A stretch of 29,859 bases of DNA. Source: a bacterium (GTDB lineage: Bacteria > Hydrothermota > Tepidihabitantia > Tepidihabitantales > Tepidihabitantaceae). A program made the position numbers and the translations under genes. The notes below the pieces were generated by a model that worked only from the letters and a program-made list of their open reading frames with translations, had not been told where the DNA came from and ran no database searches. The DNA is taken from the NCBI GenBank assembly GCA_046485285.1, contig JAWOHE010000033.1, positions 1 through 29,859 of the forward strand, written 5' to 3'. Below are positions 1,041 through 27,510 of the stretch, one piece after another (position 1 is the stretch's first letter; every line of letters starts with the position of its first letter).

Positions 1041-1210
1041 GTATGTAGCCGGCGGGGAACGGCCGCCCGGATGTTGGCCTGGATAAACCACAAAGGCACG
1101 AAGAAGTGAAGAGGTCCAAGGCACGGATCCCAGTGTTTTCTCTGTCTTGGTGTCTTGGTGTTTTCTCCGGCGGCCGGTCGCCCGCTGTATTGTGTGAAAC
1201 GGAGGTACGA

Positions 1211-3463
1211 GTGAAGGTTGTGAATCGCGCGCTCGCGGCTGTGCTGTGTGCGCTGCTGTCCGCCCCGGGTATCGCGGCGGCGGGCAGGGCCCTGGTCCGG
1301 GTCGAGGCCGGGGACTACTGGGAGCTGTACGACCGGATTCCGTTCAAGGGAAGCTCGATCGAGATTGCCGGGAAGGTGGCGGGCGAGTCCTATGACCTGC
1401 TCCTCGACCGGGCCGAGCTCGGGCTGGTCACCGCGAGCGGGCTGGGCTGGCGGGTGCTGACCGACGACATCGACACTTGGCGCGGCGAGGCGGTCGAGGA
1501 CGGGCAGTACCGGTCCTGGGACGACCACGTCGCGCTGATGCGCGGCTGGGCCGCTTCCTATCCCGATATCTGCCGGCTGGACAGCATCGGCCAGACCCAC
1601 CTCGGGAACTGGATCTACGGCGTCAAGATTAGCGGCAACGTGATGGTCGACGACGATCGGCCGATGGTCCTGCTCGAGGCGCTGCACCACGCCCGGGAAT
1701 GGGCTGCGCCCGAGGCGGCGCGCCACTTCGTCGACACGCTGCTGAGTAACTACGCGACCAATGCCGCGTTCCGCGACTACATCGACAATACTCAAACCTG
1801 GGTGTTCCCGATGATAAACGTCGACGGTTACCTGTACGATTACCCGGCCCAGCGGTCGTGGCGTAAGAACCGCCAGCCGTACGGTAGCGCCATCGGCTGT
1901 GACCCGAACCGCGACTACAACGGCGTCTGCGACGGCGACCCGATTGGCGACTGGGGTGCATTGGTCTATGGCTCGAACACGAGCCACCGGCCGTCTCAAC
2001 TGGTGTGGATGGGCGCTAGGGGCGCTTGGGGCAAGGAAGTCAACGCGCTGGCCGAGTTCTTCAAGACCAGGAACTTCGTCGCCGACATAAGCCTCCACTC
2101 TTATTCCGAGCTGGTGCTCTGGCCGTATGGCGACGGTCGGACCGCGCCCGACAACGCGACGCTCGCCAGCCTCGGTCAGCGGATGGCCGCGCTGATGCCC
2201 AGGCTCTCGAGCGGCACCTACACGCCCGAGCAGTCGAGCCAGCTTTACCCGACCTCGGGCGGCTCCTGCGACTGGATGTACGGCTGGGGCCACCATGTCG
2301 GCGGGTTCCCGTGCATGAGCTACGTCTTCGAGCTCGGCACGAGCTTCTACCAGAGCACCAGCCAGCTCGAGGCGATCCAGACCACCTGCTTCAGCGGCGC
2401 GTGGTACCTGTTCCAGCGCGCGGACTCGATCCGGACCGCGCTCCGGGGTCGGGTTCCGCCGCCCGTACTGGTCGGGCCCGACACCTCGGAGACCGGCGAC
2501 GTCACCCTGCACTGGTCGCCGGTGCGGCCGGACTACAACGAGCCGGACCGCTGGGAGGTGGAGCAGCTCTCCGGGCTGACCGTGAGCGAGGAGGACTTCG
2601 AGTCGGGTTCGGCGGGCTGGACCCTGCACGGCGCTTCGCTCTCGACGACCCAGAGGAACTCGGGGAGCTACTCGGTGTACCTCGGCACCGGCCACAACAT
2701 CTCCAACTACGCGATGACCGCGGACCCGTATCCGGTCCGGCCGGGCGACTCGCTACGCTACTGGCTATGGTACAACACCGAGGCCAACTACGACGTGACG
2801 GTCGCCGAGGTGTCGGAGAACGGGCTCGAGTGGTTCCAGCTCCACGACCGGTTCGACGGCAATTCGGGCGGCTGGGTGCGGCAGGCGTTCTCACTCGAGC
2901 CATGGGTCGGTACGTCGGTCCACATCAGGTTCCGGTATATGACCGACGATGGCACCTTGAACGCCGGCGTCTATGTCGACGATGTCTGGCCGGCTCCGGG
3001 GTTCGCGAATCGCGAGGTCCTGTCGAACGTCATTACCGACACGCTCTACGAGGTGACCGGGCTCGAGCCCGGCACGGTTTGGTTCCGGGCGCGAGGCCGG
3101 AACGCGCGATGGGACTGGAACGCCCAGGGCCCGCTCAAGGAGGTCGTTGTCACCGGGACCGGCATCGCGGCCGGGCCCGGGTCGGTGTTTGTCACCGGCA
3201 TCCGGGGTATCAGCCCGAACCCGGCGGTTCGGGGCACGCAGGTGCGCTTCATGCTGGGCCGGTCCGGGGCGGCGCGGGTCGCCGTCTACGACGCGACCGG
3301 CCGCGAGGTGCGCGTGCTCGCCGATGGCGCGCGGCCGGCGGGCGAGCACAAGGCCGGCTGGGACGGGCGGGACGCGGCGGGCAGGCTCGTGCCGGCCGGG
3401 GTGTACTACTGCCGGCTGAGCGCGGATTCGAACCACACCGCCCGGTTCGCGGTCGTGCGCTAG
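1211..3463 (+). CDS. Secreted M14 zinc carboxypeptidase with FN3-like/jelly-roll region and C-terminal FlgD-like Ig domain
   Basis: GTG at 1211 after GGAGG (1201-1205); signal peptide; M14 motifs HHAREW, NRDY, HSYSE, FELG; C-terminus WDGRDAAGRLVPAGVYYCRL. Confidence 0.9.
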   Translation: MKVVNRALAAVLCALLSAPGIAAAGRALVRVEAGDYWELYDRIPFKGSSIEIAGKVAGESYDLLLDRAELGLVTASGLGWRVLTDDIDTWRGEAVEDGQYRSWDDHVALMRGWAASYPDICRLDSIGQTHLGNWIYGVKISGNVMVDDDRPMVLLEALHHAREWAAPEAARHFVDTLLSNYATNAAFRDYIDNTQTWVFPMINVDGYLYDYPAQRSWRKNRQPYGSAIGCDPNRDYNGVCDGDPIGDWGALVYGSNTSHRPSQLVWMGARGAWGKEVNALAEFFKTRNFVADISLHSYSELVLWPYGDGRTAPDNATLASLGQRMAALMPRLSSGTYTPEQSSQLYPTSGGSCDWMYGWGHHVGGFPCMSYVFELGTSFYQSTSQLEAIQTTCFSGAWYLFQRADSIRTALRGRVPPPVLVGPDTSETGDVTLHWSPVRPDYNEPDRWEVEQLSGLTVSEEDFESGSAGWTLHGASLSTTQRNSGSYSVYLGTGHNISNYAMTADPYPVRPGDSLRYWLWYNTEANYDVTVAEVSENGLEWFQLHDRFDGNSGGWVRQAFSLEPWVGTSVHIRFRYMTDDGTLNAGVYVDDVWPAPGFANREVLSNVITDTLYEVTGLEPGTVWFRARGRNARWDWNAQGPLKEVVVTGTGIAAGPGSVFVTGIRGISPNPAVRGTQVRFMLGRSGAARVAVYDATGREVRVLADGARPAGEHKAGWDGRDAAGRLVPAGVYYCRLSADSNHTARFAVVR

Positions 3464-3526: not shown

Positions 3527-4420
3527 CTAGTCCGCGGCGCCGGAGCGGGGGTGGGCGCGGTCGTAGGCCCGGCGCAGGCGCTCGAGCGAGACGTGGGTGT
3601 AGACCTGGGTCGTGCTGAGTGTGCGGTGACCGAGTAGCTCCTGGACCGCCTTGAGGTCGGCCCCGCGCTCGAGCAGGTGGGTGGCGAAGGCGTGGCGGAG
3701 CGCGTGGGGGTTGGTGGCGGTCGCGCCGGCGACCCGGCCGAGGAGCCGGCGGACGATGCTCTGGACCGAGCGGGTGGTGAGCCGGCCGCCACGGGGGTTG
3801 AGGAAGAGCGGCGCGGCGTCCTGGTGACGGCGCCGGCCGAGGTAGTCGCGGATGGCCGCAGCCTCGTGCCGGCCTACCGGGACGATGCGCTCGCGCCGGC
3901 CCTTGCCGAGGACGCGGACGGTTTCGGCGGCGAAGTCGATGTCGGCGATGTCGAGCCCGACGAGCTCGGCGGCGCGCAGGCCGGAGCCGTAGAGGGTCTC
4001 GAGGATTGCCCGGTCGCGGGCGGTGCGCTCGTCGGCCGGCTCGACCTCGAGCGCCTGGGCGACCTGGAACTGGCTGAGAAATCCGGGAAGCCGGCGCTCG
4101 GCCCGGGGCGCGCGGACCGTGCGGGCCGGGTTGGCCGGGACGGCGCCGGTCGCGGCGAGCCAGCGGAAGAAGCCGCGGACCGCGGAGAGCTTGCGGGCGG
4201 CCGACCGGCGCTCGTAGCCGCCGCGGAGGACCGCGCCCAGCCAGTCGCGGACGTGGTCGCGGGTGACGTGGTCGAGCGGCGGCGTGCCGAGGCGCTCGCG
4301 GCAGAAGTCGAGGAACTGGTCGAGGTCGGTGCGGTAGCCCCGGATGGTGGCGGGCGAGCACTGCCGCTCGCCGGCGAGGCCGGCGAGGTACCCCGCGAGC
4401 GCGCGTTCGTAGCCGGGCAT
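3527..4420 (-). CDS. xerC: Tyrosine recombinase XerC
   Basis: 297 aa; N-terminal SAM-like domain; catalytic motifs YGSGLRAAEL, VLGKG, HALRHAFATHLL, LLGH, TQVY. Confidence 0.88.
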   Translation of the reverse strand: MPGYERALAGYLAGLAGERQCSPATIRGYRTDLDQFLDFCRERLGTPPLDHVTRDHVRDWLGAVLRGGYERRSAARKLSAVRGFFRWLAATGAVPANPARTVRAPRAERRLPGFLSQFQVAQALEVEPADERTARDRAILETLYGSGLRAAELVGLDIADIDFAAETVRVLGKGRRERIVPVGRHEAAAIRDYLGRRRHQDAAPLFLNPRGGRLTTRSVQSIVRRLLGRVAGATATNPHALRHAFATHLLERGADLKAVQELLGHRTLSTTQVYTHVSLERLRRAYDRAHPRSGAAD

Positions 4421-4494: not shown

Positions 4495-4520
4495 CAATGG
4501 CAGGCAACCAAGGAGGACAG

Positions 4521-6482
4521 ATGACGCGCTATCGTCTTGCGCTGGCAGTTATGCTCGCGCTCGCCGCACCGGCCGCGGTGCTGGCCCAGCTCGATACCGC
4601 CTGGCTCCGGCAGTACGACTGCGGGGGCGAGGACGAGGACTTCCTGTCCGACATGGCGGTCGACCAGCTCGGCAACGTCCACGTCTGTGGCCTCGGCTAC
4701 ACCGGCGGCGTCTCCACTGACATCATCGTCCAGAAGTACGGCCCGACCGGCACGCTCGAGTGGACCCGGTTCCACGCGGGAGGCCAGGAACTGGACGATA
4801 CGGCCTCGGCGCTGGTCGTCGACGGTAGCGGCAACGTCTACGTCTGCGGGGCGATCGCGCACGTCCCCGGTCAGGGGCTCGACATGTTCATCGCCAAGTA
4901 CTCGCCGGCCGGCGACTCGCTCTGGGCGCGGACTTTCGCCCGGGGTGGCAGCGGCGACGACGTCGCGCTCGGCATCTGCCTGACCAGCTCGGGCCGGGTC
5001 GCGGTGACCGGGTTCTCGGCCGCCGCGGACGACCCGTGGAACTACGACTACTGCACGATGATGCTCGACGCCGCGACCGGGGATACCCACTGGGTCCGGA
5101 CCTACAACCGGGCGCCGGAGGACGACGAGGACGTCGCGATGGCGATCTGCGCGGACGGCGCGGGCGCGGTCTACGTCACCGGCTACAGCTACGACGACGG
5201 CACCGACTACGACATCCTGACGACGAAGTACACCGAGAACGGCGACCGGCCCTGGATGAGAAGGTACAGCCGCCAGTTCGACGACGACTACGGGATGGCG
5301 ATTGCCTGGAACCCGGTGACGAACAGCGTGTCAGTCGGCGGCGTCGTCTACACCGACAACCAGGACTACAACTACTACACGGTCGCCTACGGTGCAAACG
5401 GCGATTCGCTCTGGGCGCGGGAGTACAACCGCTATCCGGCCGACGACGAGGACCTGCTGACCGCGGTGGCCGTCACTACGACCGGCAACACGATTGTGAC
5501 CGGGATGAGCTGGGACGAGGCGACGTTCTCCGACTGCGCGACGGTCGCCTACGGGCCGACCGGTTTGCCGCTCTGGGTCAGCCGCTACGACGGCGGCGGG
5601 TGGGATGACGCCGGGCTCGGGCTGGCGGTGGACTCGCTGGGCCAGGTGCTGGTCGCCGGGTATGCCGAGGACGTCCAGACCGATTTTGACGCGCTGCTGC
5701 TGAAGCTCGGGACCGACGGGAGCGTGGTCTGGGCCTGGCGGTTCGACCAGTCCGAGGGCGAGGACTGGTTCGCCCGGGTTCTCCCTCGACCGGACGGCAC
5801 GATGTACGCGGCCGGCACGGTCGAGGCCAGCGCGACGATCACCGACTTCCTGGTCTGCCGGCTGAGAGAGCTCCTGGTTGATTTCAGCGCGCTCGCCTTG
5901 GTCGCGCCGGATTCGATCTACCTGGGCGACTCGGTCGCGTCGATGCTCGTGGTCCGGAACGAGGCGATCTATCCGGCCGAGGGCTGGGCGCGGTTCCGGG
6001 CGACCTGGACCGACCACGACGACAGCGCGTTCGTGCAGCTCGCGCCGCTCGAGGTCGACACTGTCGCGTTCGGGGTCTGGTACCCGGACACGACCGGGAC
6101 CTACGAGCTCGCGGGCTGGGTGACGGTCCCGGGCGACGAGCGGCCGGGCAATGACTCGGCGTTCGTCACGCTGCGGGTTTGGGGCGACACGATCGGGATA
6201 GGCGCGCCGGGCGCGGTGGCGCTGTCCGCCGGGTTCCGGTTGTTCCCGAACCCGGCGCGGGGCGCGGTCCAGGTCCGGGCGGCGCTGGCCGGCGAGGAGC
6301 CGGCAACGGTCCGGCTCTACGACGTCACCGGCAGCGTCGTGAGGACCGGGACAATGGCCCGGTCCGCCTCGGGCGAGGCCGCTACCAGGCTTGACCTGGC
6401 CCGCCTGCCCGCCGGTGTGTATTTCTGCCGGATCGAGCACGAGCGCCAGGAGGCGGTGAGGAAGCTCATCATCCAGCACTGA
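4521..6482 (+). CDS. Secreted SBBP-type beta-propeller repeat protein with CARDB-like domain and C-terminal sorting-like Ig domain
   Basis: ATG after AAGGAGG; signal peptide; repeated AVD-x-G-N-VYV-x-G...KY...G...W-x-R-x-Y units; GDERPGND; C-terminus FPNPARG...LPAGVYFCRI...VRKLIIQH. Confidence 0.85.
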   Translation: MTRYRLALAVMLALAAPAAVLAQLDTAWLRQYDCGGEDEDFLSDMAVDQLGNVHVCGLGYTGGVSTDIIVQKYGPTGTLEWTRFHAGGQELDDTASALVVDGSGNVYVCGAIAHVPGQGLDMFIAKYSPAGDSLWARTFARGGSGDDVALGICLTSSGRVAVTGFSAAADDPWNYDYCTMMLDAATGDTHWVRTYNRAPEDDEDVAMAICADGAGAVYVTGYSYDDGTDYDILTTKYTENGDRPWMRRYSRQFDDDYGMAIAWNPVTNSVSVGGVVYTDNQDYNYYTVAYGANGDSLWAREYNRYPADDEDLLTAVAVTTTGNTIVTGMSWDEATFSDCATVAYGPTGLPLWVSRYDGGGWDDAGLGLAVDSLGQVLVAGYAEDVQTDFDALLLKLGTDGSVVWAWRFDQSEGEDWFARVLPRPDGTMYAAGTVEASATITDFLVCRLRELLVDFSALALVAPDSIYLGDSVASMLVVRNEAIYPAEGWARFRATWTDHDDSAFVQLAPLEVDTVAFGVWYPDTTGTYELAGWVTVPGDERPGNDSAFVTLRVWGDTIGIGAPGAVALSAGFRLFPNPARGAVQVRAALAGEEPATVRLYDVTGSVVRTGTMARSASGEAATRLDLARLPAGVYFCRIEHERQEAVRKLIIQH

Positions 6483-6553: not shown

Positions 6554-6648
6554 GGAGGCGGATGGGTGCTGGTGTGCCTGGCGGACTTCAAATCCGTGTG
6601 GTCTGCGATAAGTGGACCGGTAGGTTCGATTCCTACACGCCTCCGCCA
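6554..6648 (+). tRNA. selC: tRNA-Sec (anticodon UCA)
   Basis: 95 nt; anticodon arm GCGGA-CTTCAAA-TCCGT (TCA at 6588-6590); 6-bp D stem with TGGT loop; long variable arm; T arm GTAGG-TTCGATT-CCTAC; G discriminator and encoded CCA. Confidence 0.96.
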
Positions 6649-18395: not shown

Positions 18396-19205
18396 TCAGC
18401 GCTTCGGGGCAAGAATCAGCGCGACGACGGACCGCTGTTCAAACAGCCCGCCGTGGCGTGCGAGGGTCCGGCGGATGCCGCCGAAGAGGCGGCGCTTGAC
18501 CGCCGGGGTCCGGATGGCGTGGTCGGACATCGTCCGGAGCAGGTCGACGTACTCCTCGACGGCGTATCGGCGGACGCAAGGGTAGCGGAGGATCGTGACC
18601 GGTCCGAACAGGCCCGAGTTCAGGATGGCCCGGCGCTGGCGGCGGATGCGTTCCCCGGGAGGGCGGGCCCGCCAGGGCTTCAACCCGGCCGCCCGGTAGA
18701 CCGCGTCGAGTTCGCGCCGGATTGCGTCGTCGGGCGTCTCGCGGAAGTGCCAGGCGAGCGCGAGCCAGCCGCCCTCGGCGAGCGCCCGGGCGGCCCCGGG
18801 GTAGGCGGTGCGGGTCGGTAGCCAGTGGAATGCCGAGGCGGCGAAGACGAGCCGGAAGGCGGCCGGCTCGACCGGCCAGTCTTCGAACCCGACGTTGAGG
18901 ATCTCGACCCGCGGGTATCCGCGCAGGTTGCGCCGACAGCGGCGGGCCATCCGCGGCGACAGCTCGACCGCGGTGACGGCCAGGCCGCGGCGGGCGAGCT
19001 CGAGGGTCGCCTGGCCGGTGCCCGGGCCGATCTCGAGTGCCCGGCTTCCCTGCTCGAGCCGCGCGAGCCGGACGAGGTCGTCGAACATCTTCGCGGGATA
19101 GCCGGGCCGGGTGCGTTCGTAGAGCGCCGGGTTGACGTCGAATGATGCCCGGCGCAGTCGGTGGCGCTCGGCGGCCCGGAGCGGAAGCGTCGCGCCGGCG
19201 TTCAC
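18396..19205 (-). CDS. Class I SAM-dependent methyltransferase
   Basis: YERTRPGYP, LEIGPGTGQAT, VELSPRM, ASAFHWL; start placed at GTG 19205 because a promoter lies directly upstream. Confidence 0.88.
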   Translation of the reverse strand: MNAGATLPLRAAERHRLRRASFDVNPALYERTRPGYPAKMFDDLVRLARLEQGSRALEIGPGTGQATLELARRGLAVTAVELSPRMARRCRRNLRGYPRVEILNVGFEDWPVEPAAFRLVFAASAFHWLPTRTAYPGAARALAEGGWLALAWHFRETPDDAIRRELDAVYRAAGLKPWRARPPGERIRRQRRAILNSGLFGPVTILRYPCVRRYAVEEYVDLLRTMSDHAIRTPAVKRRLFGGIRRTLARHGGLFEQRSVVALILAPKR

Positions 19206-19212
19206 AGCCGGG

Positions 19213-19240
19213 ATGCTAGGAGCCCGCGGCGGTTTGTCAA
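19213..19240 (-). promoter_or_regulatory. Promoter for the methyltransferase, probably leaderless
   Basis: Minus strand TTGACA-N16-TAGCAT, 7 nt before the GTG at 19205. Confidence 0.65.
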
Positions 19241-19257
19241 CCGGGCCGATGCCGGGG

Positions 19258-19285
19258 TTGCCATCCCGGCCGGGCGGCCTACAAT
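19258..19285 (+). promoter_or_regulatory. Promoter for the Asp-box protein gene
   Basis: TTGCCA-N16-TACAAT. Confidence 0.55.
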
Positions 19286-19310
19286 AGCCCATGACCGAAT
19301 GGAGTTGAAC

Positions 19311-21515
19311 ATGAGCAGAACGACGGTTGTCCTGATCCTGGCGCTGGCCGCGGCGAGCGCGCCCGCGGCGTGGCAGTCAATCGGGCCGGACGGCGGCTAC
19401 ATAATGGCGATGGCAATCAATCCGCGCGATGCCCGGCAGGTCTACGCGACGCCTTACGACTACCCGGACAGCGCGCGGCTGTTCCTGAGCACGGATGCCG
19501 GCGCGAGCTGGCAGGACCAGGGGCGCGTGCCGGATATCTACGTGACCCTCCTGGCCGCCGACCCGCTTGACAACGACCGGGTCTACGCCAGCGGCCGCGG
19601 GAACGTCATCCACAGCTCGACTGACCGCGGCCTGAGCTGGACGAGCAGTTCCCTGCCCGGGTACGGCGTGTCACTGGCGGCGGACCCGCTAACTGCGGGC
19701 CGGGTCTATGTCGGCGGGTACTACTACCACAATGGCGCTTACCGGGCGGCGGCCTACGTGTCGACCAACCACGGCGCGAGCTGGAGCGTCTCGATGCCCT
19801 ACCCGGACACGGTGAGCTACACCTACTCGCTCGCGGCCGACCCGGTTGACGCCGGCACGGTGTATCTCGGCGCCAACTACGCCCAGCTCTTCAAGTCGAC
19901 CGACGGCGGCGCGAACTGGCAGCGGGCGAGCGGCGGCATCCCGCCGGGTTCGTCGGTACAGGGCATCTCGGTCAGCCCGGCCGACAACCGCATCGTCCTC
20001 GCGGCGACGACCGCCGGGTTCTACCGGACGACCGACGGCGGCGCGAGCTGGCAGGCCGCGGGCGCGGTGAGCGGGACGATGAGCGTCGCGTTCTCGCCCG
20101 CTGACGGAAGTGTCGCCTACGGCATCGGCCGAACCGACTCGATGCGGGTCTGCGTGACGACCGACGCGGGGTTGACGTGGAACGTTCCGTCGCCCGGGTA
20201 CGTGACGCTGAAGACCGCGAGCCTCCACGCCGACCCGGGAACCGCGGCAACCGCCTGGGTCAACACCCAGACCGGCATCTATCGGTCGACCGATACCGGC
20301 GCCAACTGGCGCGAAGCCCACACCGGGCTTCGCATCACGAGGATATCCTGCATCAGCCCCAGCCCGGGCGATGGCAGGCGGCTGTACCTGGAGGTTCACG
20401 AGAACGGCATCTTCCGAACCGAGTCGGCCGGCGACAGCTGGACCCGGTGCAACGACTTCCTGTCCTGCGGCAACGTCTGCGGCATCGGGGTCGCGCCCGG
20501 GACCGGCTACGACGTGCTCTATGCGCTCGAAGGCGCAGGCTGAGGGGACGCCGAGCTCTTCAGGAGCACGGACGGCGGGACCGTCTGGACACAGATTGAC
20601 AGCTACCTCGGCGAGGGCGGCGACTGCATCGTTCACCCCGAGGACCCGGAACTCATCGTCTATGGCGGGCAGGGCAATTCCTCGACCAGCAACTGGTCGT
20701 TCGGGCTCTGTCGTTCGACCAACGGCGGGTTGAGCTGGACCCGGATCTTCATCCAGCAGTCGCAGCGCGGCTGGTGCCACGCGCTGGCGGGGGCGGGAGC
20801 GCAGTCCGACATCATCTACGCGGGCGGTTACATTGCCACCGCGGGCGCGGTCGCGCGCTCGACCAACCGGGGCGCGAGCTGGCTCGAGACCGCGGCCGCG
20901 CCGGCCGACACCGTCTTCGGCCTGGCCGTGGACCCGTTCGATGCGGACCGGGTCTTCGCCGCGACCTCGGGCGGCGTCTACCGGACGACGGATGGCGGCG
21001 CCGGCTGGACCCGGGTTTCCACCGAGCGCGGGCTGCGCGCGGTCGCGTTCTATCCCGGCGGGCCGGATACGGTCCTCGCCGGCGGCGACAACGGCGTCCT
21101 GGTCAGCCGCGACCGCGGGCAGAGCTGGCAGGCGATGAGCGAAGGCCTCGCCGGGCAGTCGGTCACCTGCCTCGCGTTCACCGCGACCGACGCCGTCCGG
21201 CTCTACGCCGGAACCGCCCGCGGCGCCGCGTACCGCTACTCGTTCCCGACCGGGGTCGCCGGGCCCGGGTCGGGCCGCGGTCGCGCGGACCGGGCCGGCT
21301 TCCCGGCCATCGTCCGCGGGGTGTTGAGGATTGGCGACCGGGGGCCGGGGACAGGAGACCGGGCGGAACTGCTCGACATCTCCGGCCGGAAGATGATGGA
21401 CCTTGCGCCGGGCGAGAATGACGTGCGGCACCTGTCGCCCGGGGTCTACTTCGTGCGGGCTGTCGGCGGCGAGCCGCCAGCCGCAGGCTGTCAGAAGGTG
21501 GTCGTCACCCGGTAG
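19311..21515 (+). CDS. Secreted Asp-box (BNR) beta-propeller protein with C-terminal sorting-like domain and one in-frame UGA (codon 411); candidate selenoprotein, 734 aa
   Basis: ATG after GGAG; signal peptide; 8 S/T-x-D/N-x-G-x-x-W type repeats before and 5 after the TGA at 20541-20543; frame otherwise open to TAG at 21515. Confidence 0.75.
20551..20587 (+). promoter_or_regulatory. Candidate bacterial SECIS element
   Basis: Hairpin CGGACGG-CGGGA-CCGTCTG (20569-20587), loop 32 nt after the UGA with G at loop position 2; overlapping alternative hairpin 20551-20571. Confidence 0.45.
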
Positions 21516-24288: not shown

Positions 24289-27200
24289 GTGAGCCCTGCA
24301 AGCGGTCGGCCGGGCCGGGAACTGCGCGCCCGCCTTGCCGGGTTCCTTCGTCGCCGGCTCGCCAATGACCTCGCCGCGCTCCTCCTGCTCCTGCTCGGCC
24401 TGCTCACGGCCGGTGTCGCGGTCGCGGCGCTCGCGTTCTGGAGCGGCTGGACGCTGGTCCTGCTCGCGGTGCCGTTCGGCTTCGCCTGCCGGCGCTGGCT
24501 GGCCGGCCTTCGCCGGCGCGCGCTCGGCTACGCGGTCGAGGCCGAGTTCCCGGCGCTGGCCGGGAGGCTCGTCGCCGCGCTCGACCTCGCCGACGGCGGG
24601 GAGACGCGCGAGGCGTACTCGGCCGAGCTTCGGGCGGCGGCGGTGCGCGCGGTCGAGGAACAGGCCCGGGAGCTCGACTTCGGCCGGGCGTGCCGGCGCG
24701 GGCGCGTGATGCGGGCCGGGTTTGTCGCCGTCGTCGGCGCCGGGCTCCTGCTCGGCGCGCGGCTGACGTTCCCGGCGCGGTTCGGGGTCGGCGTCGCCAA
24801 TGCGTTCGCACCCGGCCGCCTGTCGGTCCGGCTCGGCGTCGCGCCGGGCGACACCGCGGTGATGCCCGGGACCGAGCTCGAGCTGGTCTGCCGGGTCGAG
24901 CCGCCGGGCGTGTTCCGGGCAGTTAGTTTCGAGCAGCCCGGCCGGCGCGCGCGGCGGGTGCCGCTCGCCGGCGACACCGCCCGGGTGCGGCTGTACGCGG
25001 CGCGGGAACAGCGCTACCGGTTTCGGGTGCTGGGCACGGCCTCGGCCGAGCACCGCGTGCGGGTGCTCGAGCCGCTCAGCATCGAGGAGCTCGGCTTCAC
25101 CTGCCGCTACCCGCCTCACACCGGTCTGCCCGATACCCGGAGCGCGGGACCGGACCTTTCCGCGCCGGTCGGGTCGGAGTTCGCGGTCGTGGGCCGCGCC
25201 AGTCAGGAGCTCGCGGCCGGGCGGCTATCCTTCGCGGCCGAGACGGTCGCGCTCGAGCCCGGGCCGGGCGGCCGTTTCGCAGGGAGATTCCGGGTGCGCG
25301 CGGATGGCCGCGGGGTCTTCGAACTGCTCGGCGACTCCGGTGGCGCCTTCCAGGTCTGCGGGCACGTGACGCTGCGGGCGGTGCCGGACGAGAGCCCGCT
25401 GGTTCGAATCCTTCGGCCGGGCCGGGACGTCGAGCTGCCGATGACGATGCGGCTTCCCCTTGCCATCAACAGCCTCGACGACTACGGCCTCGGCACGCTC
25501 TGGTTGCGCTGGGGCCGGGAGAGCCTTGACACCCGGGTGCGCGTCAAGGGTCTGGCCGGCCGCCGCGAGGACACGACACTCCACGTCTGGGACCTATCCG
25601 GGTTCGGCATCCTGCCCGGCGACGCCGTCCGCTACCGGGCCGAGGTGACCGACAACGACGCGGTTTCGGGGCCGAAGACCGGCCGGAGCGAGGTCTTCGA
25701 GGTGCGCTTCCCGACGATGGCCGAGATCTACAACGCCTCGGTGCGCCAGGCCGAGGTCACCCGCAGCGAGCTCGCGCCGCTCAGCGAGCTCCAGGAGCGG
25801 TTGACCGAGGAGGTCGGCCGGCTCGGCGAGCAGGCCCGGGGCGCGGGCGAGCTGAGCTGGGAGGAGCGCCAGGCGCTCGGCGACCTGCTCGCCGAGCAGC
25901 AGGACCTCGCGGCTGAGATCAGTGACCTGCGCGAGCAGGTCCGCCGGACGATGGACGACATCTACGACGGCGTCGCCTACGACGAGGAGACGATGCGCCG
26001 GCTCGGCGAGCTCGAACGGCTGCTGTCCGAGCTCCTGCCCCGCGAGCTGGCCGAGTCGCTCGAGCGCCTGCGCGAGAAGCTCGGCGAGTCGGGCCCGGAG
26101 CTCCGGGCCGCGCTCGGGCAGTTCGAGTTCGACCAGGAGCAGCTCCGGCGCGGCCTCGACGACGCGCTCGAGTTTCTCCGCCAGGTGATGGAGGAGCAGC
26201 AGCTTGAGGCGCTGGCCCGGACCGCTGAGGAGCTGGCCCGGGTCGAGGACGACATCGCCCGGCGCGCGCCGGGCGAGCCCGCCGACAAGCTCGGCCGCGA
26301 GCAGGAGGCGCTGTCGGACGCGCTCGACAGCCTGCTCGCCGGCATCGAGGAACTGGCCGGGGAGATGTCGGACTCCGCGGCGGCCGGGGCGCTCGCCGAG
26401 CTTGCCGGGCAGGCGGAGCAGGACCGGCTCAGCGCCGAGGCCCGCGCGTCGGCGGCGCAGTTCCGGCAGGGCCGGCCCGGACCAGCGCAGGAGCAGGCTT
26501 CCGAGGTCGCGCGCAAGCTCGGCGAGCTCGGCACGTCGCTAGGCGACCTCGGCGGCGACCTGAAGCGCAGGCGGTCGGAAGACCTCGCCGGCAGGCTCGG
26601 GGCCGCGGTCGAGGAGCTGTTGATGCTTTCCCGGACCCAGGAGGAACTCGAGCGGCAGATTGCCGAGACGCGCGAGACCGGGCCGGCAATCGGCAGGCAG
26701 ATGGGGCTCCACGACGCGACCGGGGTCATCGCCGAGAGCCTCGCCGCGCTGCCGAACCGGACGCTGTCGGTTTCCGGCCGGCTGGTCGGCGAGCTCGGCC
26801 GGGCGCGCGAGGCGATGAAGTCGGCCGGGCAGGACCTGCTCGAGGCCCGCGCCGCCGCGGCGGGCCGGCGGATGGCCGAGGCCCGGGCCTCGCTCGACCG
26901 GGTCGCGGCCGGCCTGCTCGAGGCGATGGCCTCCGCGGAACGGGGCGGCGGGATGTCGGGCGGGTTCGAGGGCCTGATGGAGGCGCTGTCCCGGCTCGCG
27001 GCCGGGCAGATGTCGGTCAACATCGGGACCGGCGGCCTGCCGATACCGATGCCGGGCGGGATGAGCCCCGGCCTGGCCGAGGCGCTCGGCCGCCTGCTTG
27101 CCCAGCAGGGCGCCCTGCGCGAGCGGCTCGAGCATATGCTCGACCAGCTCGGCGGCGAGCGGCCCGGGCTGACCTCGGCGCTTGACGGGCTGGTCGAGGA

Positions 27201-27510
27201 GATGAGGCAGGTCGAGCGGGACTTTGCCGAGATGAGCATCCAGCGCGAGCTAATCGCGCGGCAGGAGGGGATCCTTTCCCGCCTTCTCGACGCCCAGCGC
27301 AGCGTCCGCCAGCAGGGTCGCAAGGAGGAGCGCGAGTCCGAGACTGCCGGCGCGTTCGAGCGCGACCCGGTGCCGGGCCTGCCCGAGGATCGGGGCGAAC
27401 GCAACCGCCTGCTTCGCGAGGAGCTGATGCGGTCCCTGCGCGAGGGGCGGCTGGGCCGGTTCGAGCCCCAGGTCCGGCGATACTTCGAGCACCTGCTCGA
27501 GGAGCAGTGA
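24289..27510 (+). CDS. Large membrane-anchored coiled-coil protein, DUF4175-like
   Basis: N-terminal TM helices, beta-rich middle (DDYGL; DNDAVSGPK), long Glu/Gln coiled coil, C-terminal ILSRLLDAQRS...VRRYFEHL. Confidence 0.75.
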   Translation: MSPASGRPGRELRARLAGFLRRRLANDLAALLLLLLGLLTAGVAVAALAFWSGWTLVLLAVPFGFACRRWLAGLRRRALGYAVEAEFPALAGRLVAALDLADGGETREAYSAELRAAAVRAVEEQARELDFGRACRRGRVMRAGFVAVVGAGLLLGARLTFPARFGVGVANAFAPGRLSVRLGVAPGDTAVMPGTELELVCRVEPPGVFRAVSFEQPGRRARRVPLAGDTARVRLYAAREQRYRFRVLGTASAEHRVRVLEPLSIEELGFTCRYPPHTGLPDTRSAGPDLSAPVGSEFAVVGRASQELAAGRLSFAAETVALEPGPGGRFAGRFRVRADGRGVFELLGDSGGAFQVCGHVTLRAVPDESPLVRILRPGRDVELPMTMRLPLAINSLDDYGLGTLWLRWGRESLDTRVRVKGLAGRREDTTLHVWDLSGFGILPGDAVRYRAEVTDNDAVSGPKTGRSEVFEVRFPTMAEIYNASVRQAEVTRSELAPLSELQERLTEEVGRLGEQARGAGELSWEERQALGDLLAEQQDLAAEISDLREQVRRTMDDIYDGVAYDEETMRRLGELERLLSELLPRELAESLERLREKLGESGPELRAALGQFEFDQEQLRRGLDDALEFLRQVMEEQQLEALARTAEELARVEDDIARRAPGEPADKLGREQEALSDALDSLLAGIEELAGEMSDSAAAGALAELAGQAEQDRLSAEARASAAQFRQGRPGPAQEQASEVARKLGELGTSLGDLGGDLKRRRSEDLAGRLGAAVEELLMLSRTQEELERQIAETRETGPAIGRQMGLHDATGVIAESLAALPNRTLSVSGRLVGELGRAREAMKSAGQDLLEARAAAAGRRMAEARASLDRVAAGLLEAMASAERGGGMSGGFEGLMEALSRLAAGQMSVNIGTGGLPIPMPGGMSPGLAEALGRLLAQQGALRERLEHMLDQLGGERPGLTSALDGLVEEMRQVERDFAEMSIQRELIARQEGILSRLLDAQRSVRQQGRKEERESETAGAFERDPVPGLPEDRGERNRLLREELMRSLREGRLGRFEPQVRRYFEHLLEEQ

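Follow-up and report, generated by a model that had tools for sequence, protein, structure and literature searches.

The DNA considered here raises the question of whether a TGA codon lying between two open reading frames (ORFs) is a stop or a selenocysteine (Sec) codon. The stretch analysed, hereafter the window, comprises 29,859 nucleotides (positions 1 to 29,859 of contig JAWOHE010000033.1, GenBank assembly GCA_046485285.1) from a bacterium of the family Tepidihabitantaceae (Hydrothermota), and an earlier note made from its sequence had proposed that the forward-strand region 19311-21515 encodes a new selenoprotein, in which a single in-frame TGA joins two ORFs of a secreted Asp-box beta-propeller. 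A comparison with related genomes indicates that the UGA at 20541-20543 is very probably decoded as Sec in a conserved protein family. It is held with equally high confidence that the region is one gene encoding a predicted 734-residue exported selenoprotein, whose double propeller resembles that of glycoside hydrolase family 74 (GH74).

The two ORFs, 19161..20543 and 20730..21515 (both on the forward strand in the ORF listing of the window), are in the same frame. Translation of 19311-21515 with TGA read as Sec (U) gives 734 residues and a stop, and the sole non-standard step is U411; the complete selenoprotein gene (19311..21515, forward strand) therefore has 734 codons, Sec as codon 411, and a TAG stop at 21513-21515. 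The TGA (20541..20543, forward strand) lies in the local context ggc tga ggg, within the motif L-E-G-x-G-U-G-x-A-E-L-F. The main sequence-level claims of the earlier note held when they were recomputed, including the frame and codon that yield the 734-residue read-through, the 13 Asp-box-like motifs at a spacing of about 44 residues (8 before the TGA and 5 after it), and the continuing G+C richness of third codon positions (GC3), which is 0.90 in 19311-20540, 0.87 in 20544-20729, and 0.92 in 20730-21512. A GGAG sequence is present 8 nt 5' of the ATG at 19311, and nothing like it precedes the TTG at 20730, in line with the proposed lack of a Shine-Dalgarno sequence for the downstream part; as had also been said, this TTG is located within an Asp-box (STNGGLSW). 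The tRNA-Sec, placed 14 kb away by the earlier note, lies 13.9 kb upstream of the TGA. The source genome also contains a second copy of the family on another contig (G000:C30:23791-25893, plus strand, locus L030) with 36% identity, which has a TGA in the same column as the window gene and a TGA as its natural terminator as well.

The distribution of the TGA was examined by searching the read-through protein against 40 related genomes and the source genome, and matches were found in 36 of the 41. Nearly all long matches (E values of about 1e-54 or better, 31-71% identity) had exactly one TGA, and the weaker matches at 27-31% identity had none. Among 61 places fetched from these genomes and aligned, the 41 homologs with a TGA, which extend down to about 31% identity, all have it in a single alignment column, with the context A-L-E-G-x-G-U-G-x-A-E-L-F-[KR]-S-T-D-G-G-x-V-W. 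Eighteen of the 20 TGA-free homologs are gapped at this column, i.e., they do not have the loop, and the remaining two have Thr and Ser, respectively, at 27-31% identity in a poorly aligned region. The earlier note had named Trp, Gly, Arg, or Ser at this position, together with a TGA unique to the source genome, as signs against Sec; only this single Ser in a distant homolog was seen, and the TGA recurs across homologs. Cys was absent from the Sec column in all 61 aligned homologs.

In a wider scan with one genome per species, 166 relatives were found. The best 79 loci among them were retained, and these come from records titled as candidate division WOR-3, Ca. Stahlbacteria, Ca. Fermentibacteria/Hyd24-12, and Ca. 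Sabulitectum. When the motif was searched with the Sec position left free, 80 sites were found in 75 of the 79 loci, and U was present at 80 of 80. Of the four loci without such a site, three have U within a variant of the motif. Pooling of the sites gave 101 distinct 72-nt Sec sites, with some overlap of loci between searches. In addition, a matched codon test was applied to 272 genomes of the phylum with the pattern E-G-x-G-[codon]-G-x-A-[E/Q]-L, a design that is blind to Cys forms with diverged flanks. With TGA at the free codon, 107 matches were obtained in 61 of the 272 genomes (up to 8 per genome), and the reversed control pattern gave 0; with TGY (the Cys codons), there was a single match, which is ascribed to chance because its surrounding frame is full of stops. 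The Cys orthologs expected by the earlier note were thus not encountered in the 61 homologs, the 80 motif sites, or, with the flanks fixed, the 272 genomes.

Protein database searches brought out further relatives of several kinds. A search with a 131-position profile of the Sec region, in which the best 150 matches were scanned for the motif and 76,836 further matches lay beyond them, is a poor test for Cys forms for that reason. These best 150 matches are mostly giant multi-repeat BNR proteins, and one was useful: P0067 (32% identity, representing a cluster of four proteins) has Leu at the Sec position and Asp in place of both C386 and C390, and it is the only full-length relative found among them that keeps the loop without Sec. 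In a word-based protein search with residues 371-470, half of the 18 matches were N-terminal fragments, and the motif was absent from the full-length matches P0009, P0013, P0014, and P0017.

These data bear directly on the possibility that the gene is broken or split, so that translation really ends at the TGA and what follows is either a separate gene or a remnant in decay. Translation table 11 does give two ORFs, the N-terminal part is annotated in public records as a stand-alone protein, and a broken paralog exists, as the copy at G014:C27:4736-6913 (locus L062) contains three in-frame TAG codons besides the conserved TGA; that copy is probably decaying or an assembly error. However, in addition to the recurrence of the same codon in the same column, conservation is no lower after the TGA than before it: in an alignment of 34 sequences (A1), residues 21-410 have a mean pairwise identity of 0.37 and residues 412-645 one of 0.41, and invariant columns are found on either side of position 411. 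The motif around Sec is the most conserved segment of the protein outside the Asp-boxes. Comparison of the homologs thereby indicates that protein-level selection on the reading frame persists after the UGA, as the earlier note had anticipated for coding conservation on both sides of a shared TGA column. Moreover, the downstream part has no start codon with a ribosome-binding site, its first start falls inside an Asp-box, half a propeller would not close, and GC3 is unchanged across the TGA. A broken or split gene is therefore considered highly improbable.

The family grows by tandem duplication while retaining the TGA. Four motif matches about 2.4 kb apart occur on a single contig (G206:C29:3877-11193) as tandem Sec-bearing paralogs, and further tandem Sec-bearing paralogs, up to three per fetched locus, were detected at loci L106, L082, L101, and L127.

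The machinery needed for Sec insertion was sought in the source genome, whose assembly comprises 102 contigs and is 88% complete. The tRNA-Sec gene (anticodon TCA; 6554..6648, forward strand of the window) was predicted by ARAGORN and matches Rfam RF01852 with 73.2 bits, against a gathering score of 47. The selA, selB, and selD genes, to which the earlier note had pointed as the genes to look for, were all found above their curated cut-offs: selB scores 357.5 bits (cut-off 242), selA 537.7 (268), and selD 334.8 (125). On contig C37 (G000:C37:9674-12542, minus strand) selD directly adjoins selB. SelD is itself a selenoprotein in this genome, with an in-frame TGA in the context SCAGUASK and a hairpin with an A-G-U-U-G loop 22 nt after the UGA. 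Across the phylum, selA was detected at E <= 1e-60 in 120 of the 272 genomes, and a cross-tabulation made by hand placed 59 of the 61 TGA-motif genomes in that group. In the two exceptions, G158 and G270, pieces of selA are located at the ends of contigs, and a complete selB is present in G270. Since the relatives are not independent, this co-occurrence serves only as a consistency check.

A genome-wide reassignment of TGA to Trp or Gly (NCBI codes 4 or 25), to which in-frame TGA codons in uncultured lineages are generally known to be due in some cases, would also explain a TGA within a gene. However, TGA is the stop of 10 of the 13 window ORFs with coding-like composition and also terminates 8 of the 40 complete family members, so genome-wide reassignment is excluded, its residual probability being minute; in addition, family members have exactly one internal TGA each, and a tRNA-Sec is present.

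Decoding of UGA as Sec in bacteria would also call for a Sec insertion sequence (SECIS) in the RNA after the codon. In an ungapped alignment of the 41 sites (A2, 72 columns), two adjacent hairpins were recognized. Hairpin 1 (20555..20567, forward strand; GCUCU-UCA-GGAGC) has a loop that begins 16 nt after the UGA, and four of its five pairs are invariant in the 41 sequences (GCUCU/RGAGC). Hairpin 2 (20570..20586, forward strand; G-GACGG-CGGGA-CCGUC-U), the probable SelB-binding SECIS, has a loop that begins 32 nt after the UGA and shows compensatory changes in three of its five core pairs (GC to AU in 9 sequences, AU to CG or GC in 5, and CG to UA in 3), counts that are too high if taken as independent events because the sequences are related. 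Over both hairpins, 91.8% of alignment cells are paired, and shifting the 3' partners by 1-3 columns lowers this to 29-47%; the covariation score was reached by none of 500 column shuffles, and RNAalifold predicts these same two helices from the alignment. An outer stem pairing columns 15-19 with 39-43 around hairpin 1 was also considered, but it showed no two-sided change and was dropped in favor of the two hairpins.

Codon usage in this segment is also restricted. Leu416 is CTC in all 101 sites, Ser419 is AGC in 100 of them, the lone AGT co-occurring with GAA at Glu415 so that the pair is kept, and Gly422 is GGC in 38 of 39. Normalised codon entropy is 0 at E415, L416, and S419, compared with 0.46-0.97 at conserved Leu, Ser, and Gly codons elsewhere in the gene. 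Over the 46 nt that follow the UGA, the nucleotides are thus constrained beyond the needs of the protein. Hairpin 2 has an N-G-G-N-N loop in 101 of 101 sites, with a stem of 5-6 bp, a loop of 5 nt, and a spacing of 32 nt. The bacterial SECIS (bSECIS) model, as described in the main text of a recent review, specifies an apical loop of 3-9 nt, a stem of 4-16 bp, a G in the first two loop positions, a spacing of 16-37 nt from the UGA, and an energy no higher than -7.5 kcal/mol (PMC13188914). Hairpin 2 fits every one of these criteria except energy.

The same nucleotides serve an Asp-box. At one position, twelve of the thirteen Asp-boxes have S, T, N, or G; the one that follows Sec instead has Val, and this Val425 is explained by RNA pairing, because the GAC of Asp421 (20571-20573) pairs with the GUC of Val425 (20583-20585). 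Where Asp421 is replaced, the partner codon 425 changes as well, with ACU paired with AGU (T/S) and AGC with GCU (S/A), and AAC (Asn) at 421 is paired with GUU in some sites only. Here an RNA signal and a protein motif have clearly co-evolved on shared nucleotides. In the proposed mechanism, SelB-GTP carrying Sec-tRNA(Sec) would bind hairpin 2 at its N-G-G-N-N loop as the ribosome arrives at the UGA, and Sec would be inserted at position 411, yielding the 734-residue protein.

The predicted protein begins with a putative signal peptide, MSRTTVVLILALAAASAPAA (19311..19370, forward strand), followed by the conserved mature N-terminus W-x-S-I-G-P-D-G-G; the cleavage site is putative, and homologs have a hydrophobic leader ahead of W..[IV]GP.GG. 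The mature start, with its W-containing strand and Gly-rich turn, presumably resembles the N-terminus of GH74 enzymes. At the other end, a domain of about 88 residues (21249..21512, forward strand) resembles the sorting domain of type A cargo of the type IX secretion system (T9SS), scoring 17.9 bits with TIGR04183 (cut-off 23). A match to the 75-residue PDB chain 8glk_D spans profile positions 661-733 (E 1.8e-07), the C-terminal part alone matches about 60 other frames of the source genome, and 66 frames of this genome are above the TIGR04183 cut-off; a Pfam search gave no match to the C-terminal sorting domain (PF18962). The resemblance of the tail to a T9SS sorting domain suggests putative export, and the signal peptide together with this tail would deliver the protein to the cell surface or the medium. 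A frame on another contig (G000:C69:3254-3463, minus strand) matches the C-terminal sorting-like domain and has one in-frame TGA, and the source genome may hold further exported selenoproteins.

Between these ends, Pfam detected Sortilin-Vps10 (PF15902, E 2.9e-38) and BNR repeats. An AlphaFold2 model built from the 34-sequence alignment (pLDDT 88.7, pTM 0.79) was compared with known structures by Foldseek, and 22 listed GH74 chains rank first with TM scores of 0.50-0.63; the best-matching PDB entries are without exception xyloglucanases or cellobiohydrolases of GH74, at a TM score of about 0.62 over about 770 columns and 17-20% identity. A GH74 profile match was also obtained (E 9.8e-38). The fold is therefore inferred from the model to be a GH74-like tandem seven-bladed Asp-box propeller. 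The ten-bladed Sortilin/Vps10 propeller was rejected, as the model matches the tandem seven-bladed GH74 fold (TM 0.62) and the sortilin entry has a TM score of 0.17. The match to NCBIfam NF045728 (F510_1955 family glycosylhydrolase) is not counted as membership: the score of 196.2 bits exceeds the cut-off of 175, but it is a sum over five stretches, the model has 246 positions whereas the repeat protein has 734 residues, and the architectures are not equivalent.

Whether the GH74 fold brings GH74 chemistry with it is another matter. The catalytic residues of GH74 enzymes are a pair of Asp, one per propeller, and the C. thermocellum chains 2cn2 and 2cn3 have one Asp/Ala difference in the DIGG loop. 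In the family alignment, from P26/G28/G29 to G64, no column is invariant or at least 90% acidic, and the GH74 alignments are out of register owing to the repeats. Because the blade-1 loop matching the GH74 DIGG loop is not conserved in the family, a GH74-type hydrolytic mechanism is doubtful for these Sec-containing propellers.

A candidate working site is suggested by the surroundings of Sec. Two cysteines, in the sequence C386-G-N-V-C390 (20466..20480, forward strand), are located 25 and 21 residues upstream of Sec. The pattern CGxxC is present in 89 of the 101 Sec sites, and one Cys or more remains in this stretch in the 12 without it, so that a Cys is found 20-28 residues upstream at every Sec site. 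In the AlphaFold2 model, the strands of blade 9 correspond to residues 389-395, 402-407, 415-419, and 427-430; U411 is in the loop between strands 2 and 3, C386 is in the loop entering strand 1, and C390 is at the start of strand 1. Propeller loops of these kinds share one face, as is established for the fold, and on this basis Sec411 and C386/C390 are inferred to be on the same face of the propeller. The earlier note had suggested that Sec and the cysteines of SCGNVC form a Se-S redox or metal-binding site; the retention of Cys at all 101 Sec sites and the joint loss of Sec and both Cys in P0067 indirectly favor such a Sec/Cys working centre, and the closeness of these residues follows only from topology. 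Sec411 and C386-x3-C390 would then form either a selenenylsulfide redox centre or a soft-metal/chalcogen binding site, and the chance that this is the working site of the protein is put at roughly even.

Alternatively, Sec may be inserted without being catalytic, acting as a gate on selenium availability or as a structural cross-link, while the function resides elsewhere, e.g., in the binding of carbohydrates within the cleft between the propellers. In favor of this, GH74 enzymes, whose fold the protein is predicted to have, are active on carbohydrates; the family, like other surface proteins that handle glycans, occurs in multiple copies and in tandem duplicates; and P0067 persists without either Sec or the cysteines. 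On the other hand, the Sec is costly and apparently obligate, with no Cys form found in the 272 genomes of the phylum, which argues for chemistry beyond that of Cys, and the Sec motif is the most conserved segment that is not an Asp-box; a non-catalytic role is thus regarded as quite unlikely.

Several points weigh against Sec decoding in a conserved family and against the assignments of export and site that accompany it. The set of 101 sites was chosen by a motif that fixes several flanking residues, and the counts of compensatory cells, as noted above, overstate independent events. A Cys-containing homolog was not found in the searches described, which is atypical for selenoproteins, almost all of which possess Cys homologs according to the text of the deep-Sep paper (PMC12013277). 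Hairpin 2 alone has an energy of -7.3 kcal/mol in the window, and 40% of the 101 sites reach -7.5; the threshold is passed only when hairpin 1 is included, the two jointly giving -15.3 in the window and, across the 101 sites, never more than -10.5. The first two loop positions of hairpin 1 lack a G. The 86 nt after the TGA in the window itself have z = -1.58, with 15 of 200 shuffles folding equally well or better, and as single-sequence folding is not significant, the case rests on comparative data. T9SS export depends on the sub-threshold domain match described above, and the T9SS machinery was not confirmed in the 88%-complete source genome: the SprA model had no match anywhere, control genomes included, and is uninformative, and PorV gave sub-threshold matches only (20.7 bits against 27). 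The proximity of Sec and Cys, finally, is topological reasoning only.

The UGA could instead be read through without SelB and Sec, either by near-cognate insertion aided by the hairpins or as a selenium-independent switch that yields a 410-residue and a full-length product. In other systems, conserved hairpins 3' of a stop codon can stimulate read-through as well; hairpin 1 breaks the loop rule, hairpin 2 by itself is marginal in energy, and N-terminal products of 403-410 residues are already in databases as predicted proteins. Against this, the TGA-propeller motif was seen only in genomes with evidence of Sec machinery, the loop of hairpin 2 is NGGNN throughout with a spacing that falls within the bSECIS model, and the upstream Cys is co-conserved and lost together with Sec in P0067, which points to a chemically meaningful residue at 411. 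Read-through of this kind is therefore judged unlikely, and decoding of the UGA as Sec is retained as the best explanation.

The surroundings of the gene give little indication of a partner. It stands alone, with a methyltransferase gene upstream on the other strand and a TonB-dependent receptor gene downstream. Among 99 family loci with flanks of up to 1.5 kb, a TonB-dependent receptor was beside none, a methyltransferase was near three (two of which are the same place), and no operon partner was found; the recurrent neighbours were paralogs, other T9SS-type propeller cargo (10 loci), and an XerC-like recombinase (8 loci). Elsewhere in the window, the forward-strand gene 4497-6479 encodes a 661-residue SBBP beta-propeller-repeat protein with a Por_Secre_tail match (E 1e-12) and ends 75 nt before the tRNA-Sec gene; SBBP cargo genes of this kind adjoin Sec-propeller genes in 10 other loci. 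A XerC/D-type tyrosine recombinase is encoded at 3530-4420 on the reverse strand, and a similar one is near family members in 8 other loci. The forward-strand gene 1106-3460 encodes a zinc carboxypeptidase (Peptidase_M14) with MAM-like and FlgD_ig C-terminal domains, which is likely another secreted cargo. An ORF of 1073 residues at 24289-27507 (forward strand) has coding-like composition (GC3 0.93) and no Pfam match at E <= 1e-5.

Compared with known systems, the gene resembles those with a SECIS inside the ORF, such as the formate dehydrogenase-type genes of E. coli, in having a UGA followed by a stem-loop with a small loop and a G in its first two positions, in the 16-37 nt spacing, and in the presence of tRNA-Sec, SelA, SelB, and SelD in the genome. 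It differs from them in having two conserved adjacent hairpins, the first of which is sequence-invariant and breaks the loop-G rule, in a SECIS that lies over an Asp-box and forces the pairing of D421 (GAC) with V425 (GUC), and in the lack of Cys homologs among the sequences found. With GH74 xyloglucanases and oligoxyloglucan cellobiohydrolases (PDB 2ebs, 5fkq, 2cn3, and 6p2o, among others), the protein shares tandem seven-bladed Asp-box propellers, whereas identity is 17-20% and there is no conserved acidic counterpart of the DIGG loop in blade 1; GH74 enzymes are not known to be selenoproteins, and the Sec loop and CxxxC belong to the present family. T9SS type A cargo (TIGR04183/Por_Secre_tail) has the same order of signal peptide, functional domain, and C-terminal domain of about 80 residues, from which the window protein departs in that its own tail is below the cut-off (17.9 vs 23 bits).

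Extracytoplasmic selenoproteins have been catalogued previously, and the main text of the review cited above names the outer-membrane beta-barrel of the GSU2204 family, a UshA-like CxU protein, the ExtKL cytochrome, and the SaoB/SaoX binding proteins (PMC13188914). These have in common with the present family a Sec outside the cytoplasm and Cys-plus-Sec motifs that suggest metal or redox chemistry, but they belong to other folds and families, and none is described in that text as T9SS cargo or as a propeller. That review, from 2026, tabulates 119 prokaryotic selenoprotein families or subfamilies, and its main text contains no BNR, propeller, sortilin, glycos-, photosystem, repeat, hydrolase, T9SS, or WOR-3, though its supplement could list the family (PMC13188914). 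The texts of the deep-Sep and BSepDB papers likewise contain no BNR, propeller, sortilin, glycos-, or photosystem, and the latter does not mention WOR-3, though their supplements or BSepDB itself could list the family (PMC12013277, PMC13326102). A full-text literature search did not link selenoproteins with Asp-box proteins or Fermentibacteria, and no selenoprotein T9SS cargo was found in the literature searched. Within that literature, the Sec-bearing GH74-like double-propeller family is uncatalogued.

In public collections the family is represented by N-terminal fragments of 403-410 residues, annotated as hypothetical protein or as photosystem II stability/assembly factor-like, and since only such fragments are recorded, the annotation of many WOR-3 and Fermentibacteria genomes is wrong, often in several places per genome. 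As the family has Sec without a Cys-form counterpart, methods based on Sec/Cys homology would miss it. A broader reading may be offered tentatively, and with considerably less confidence than Sec decoding itself: these proteins could be the first exported (T9SS-type) bacterial selenoenzymes on a glycoside-hydrolase-like double propeller, in which an obligate Sec, with no Cys form, and the CxxxC constitute a new extracellular redox or metal/chalcogen site acting outside anaerobic WOR-3/Fermentibacteria cells, and in which a SECIS lies within an Asp-box, with RNA pairing dictating two residues of the motif.

The family would widen the range of selenoproteins by a non-thioredoxin, carbohydrate-enzyme-like, exported scaffold, and its use of Sec without a Cys form suggests chemistry beyond that of sulfur. 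It would also imply a selenium demand at the cell surface or in the secretome of lineages that are abundant in sediments and hot springs.

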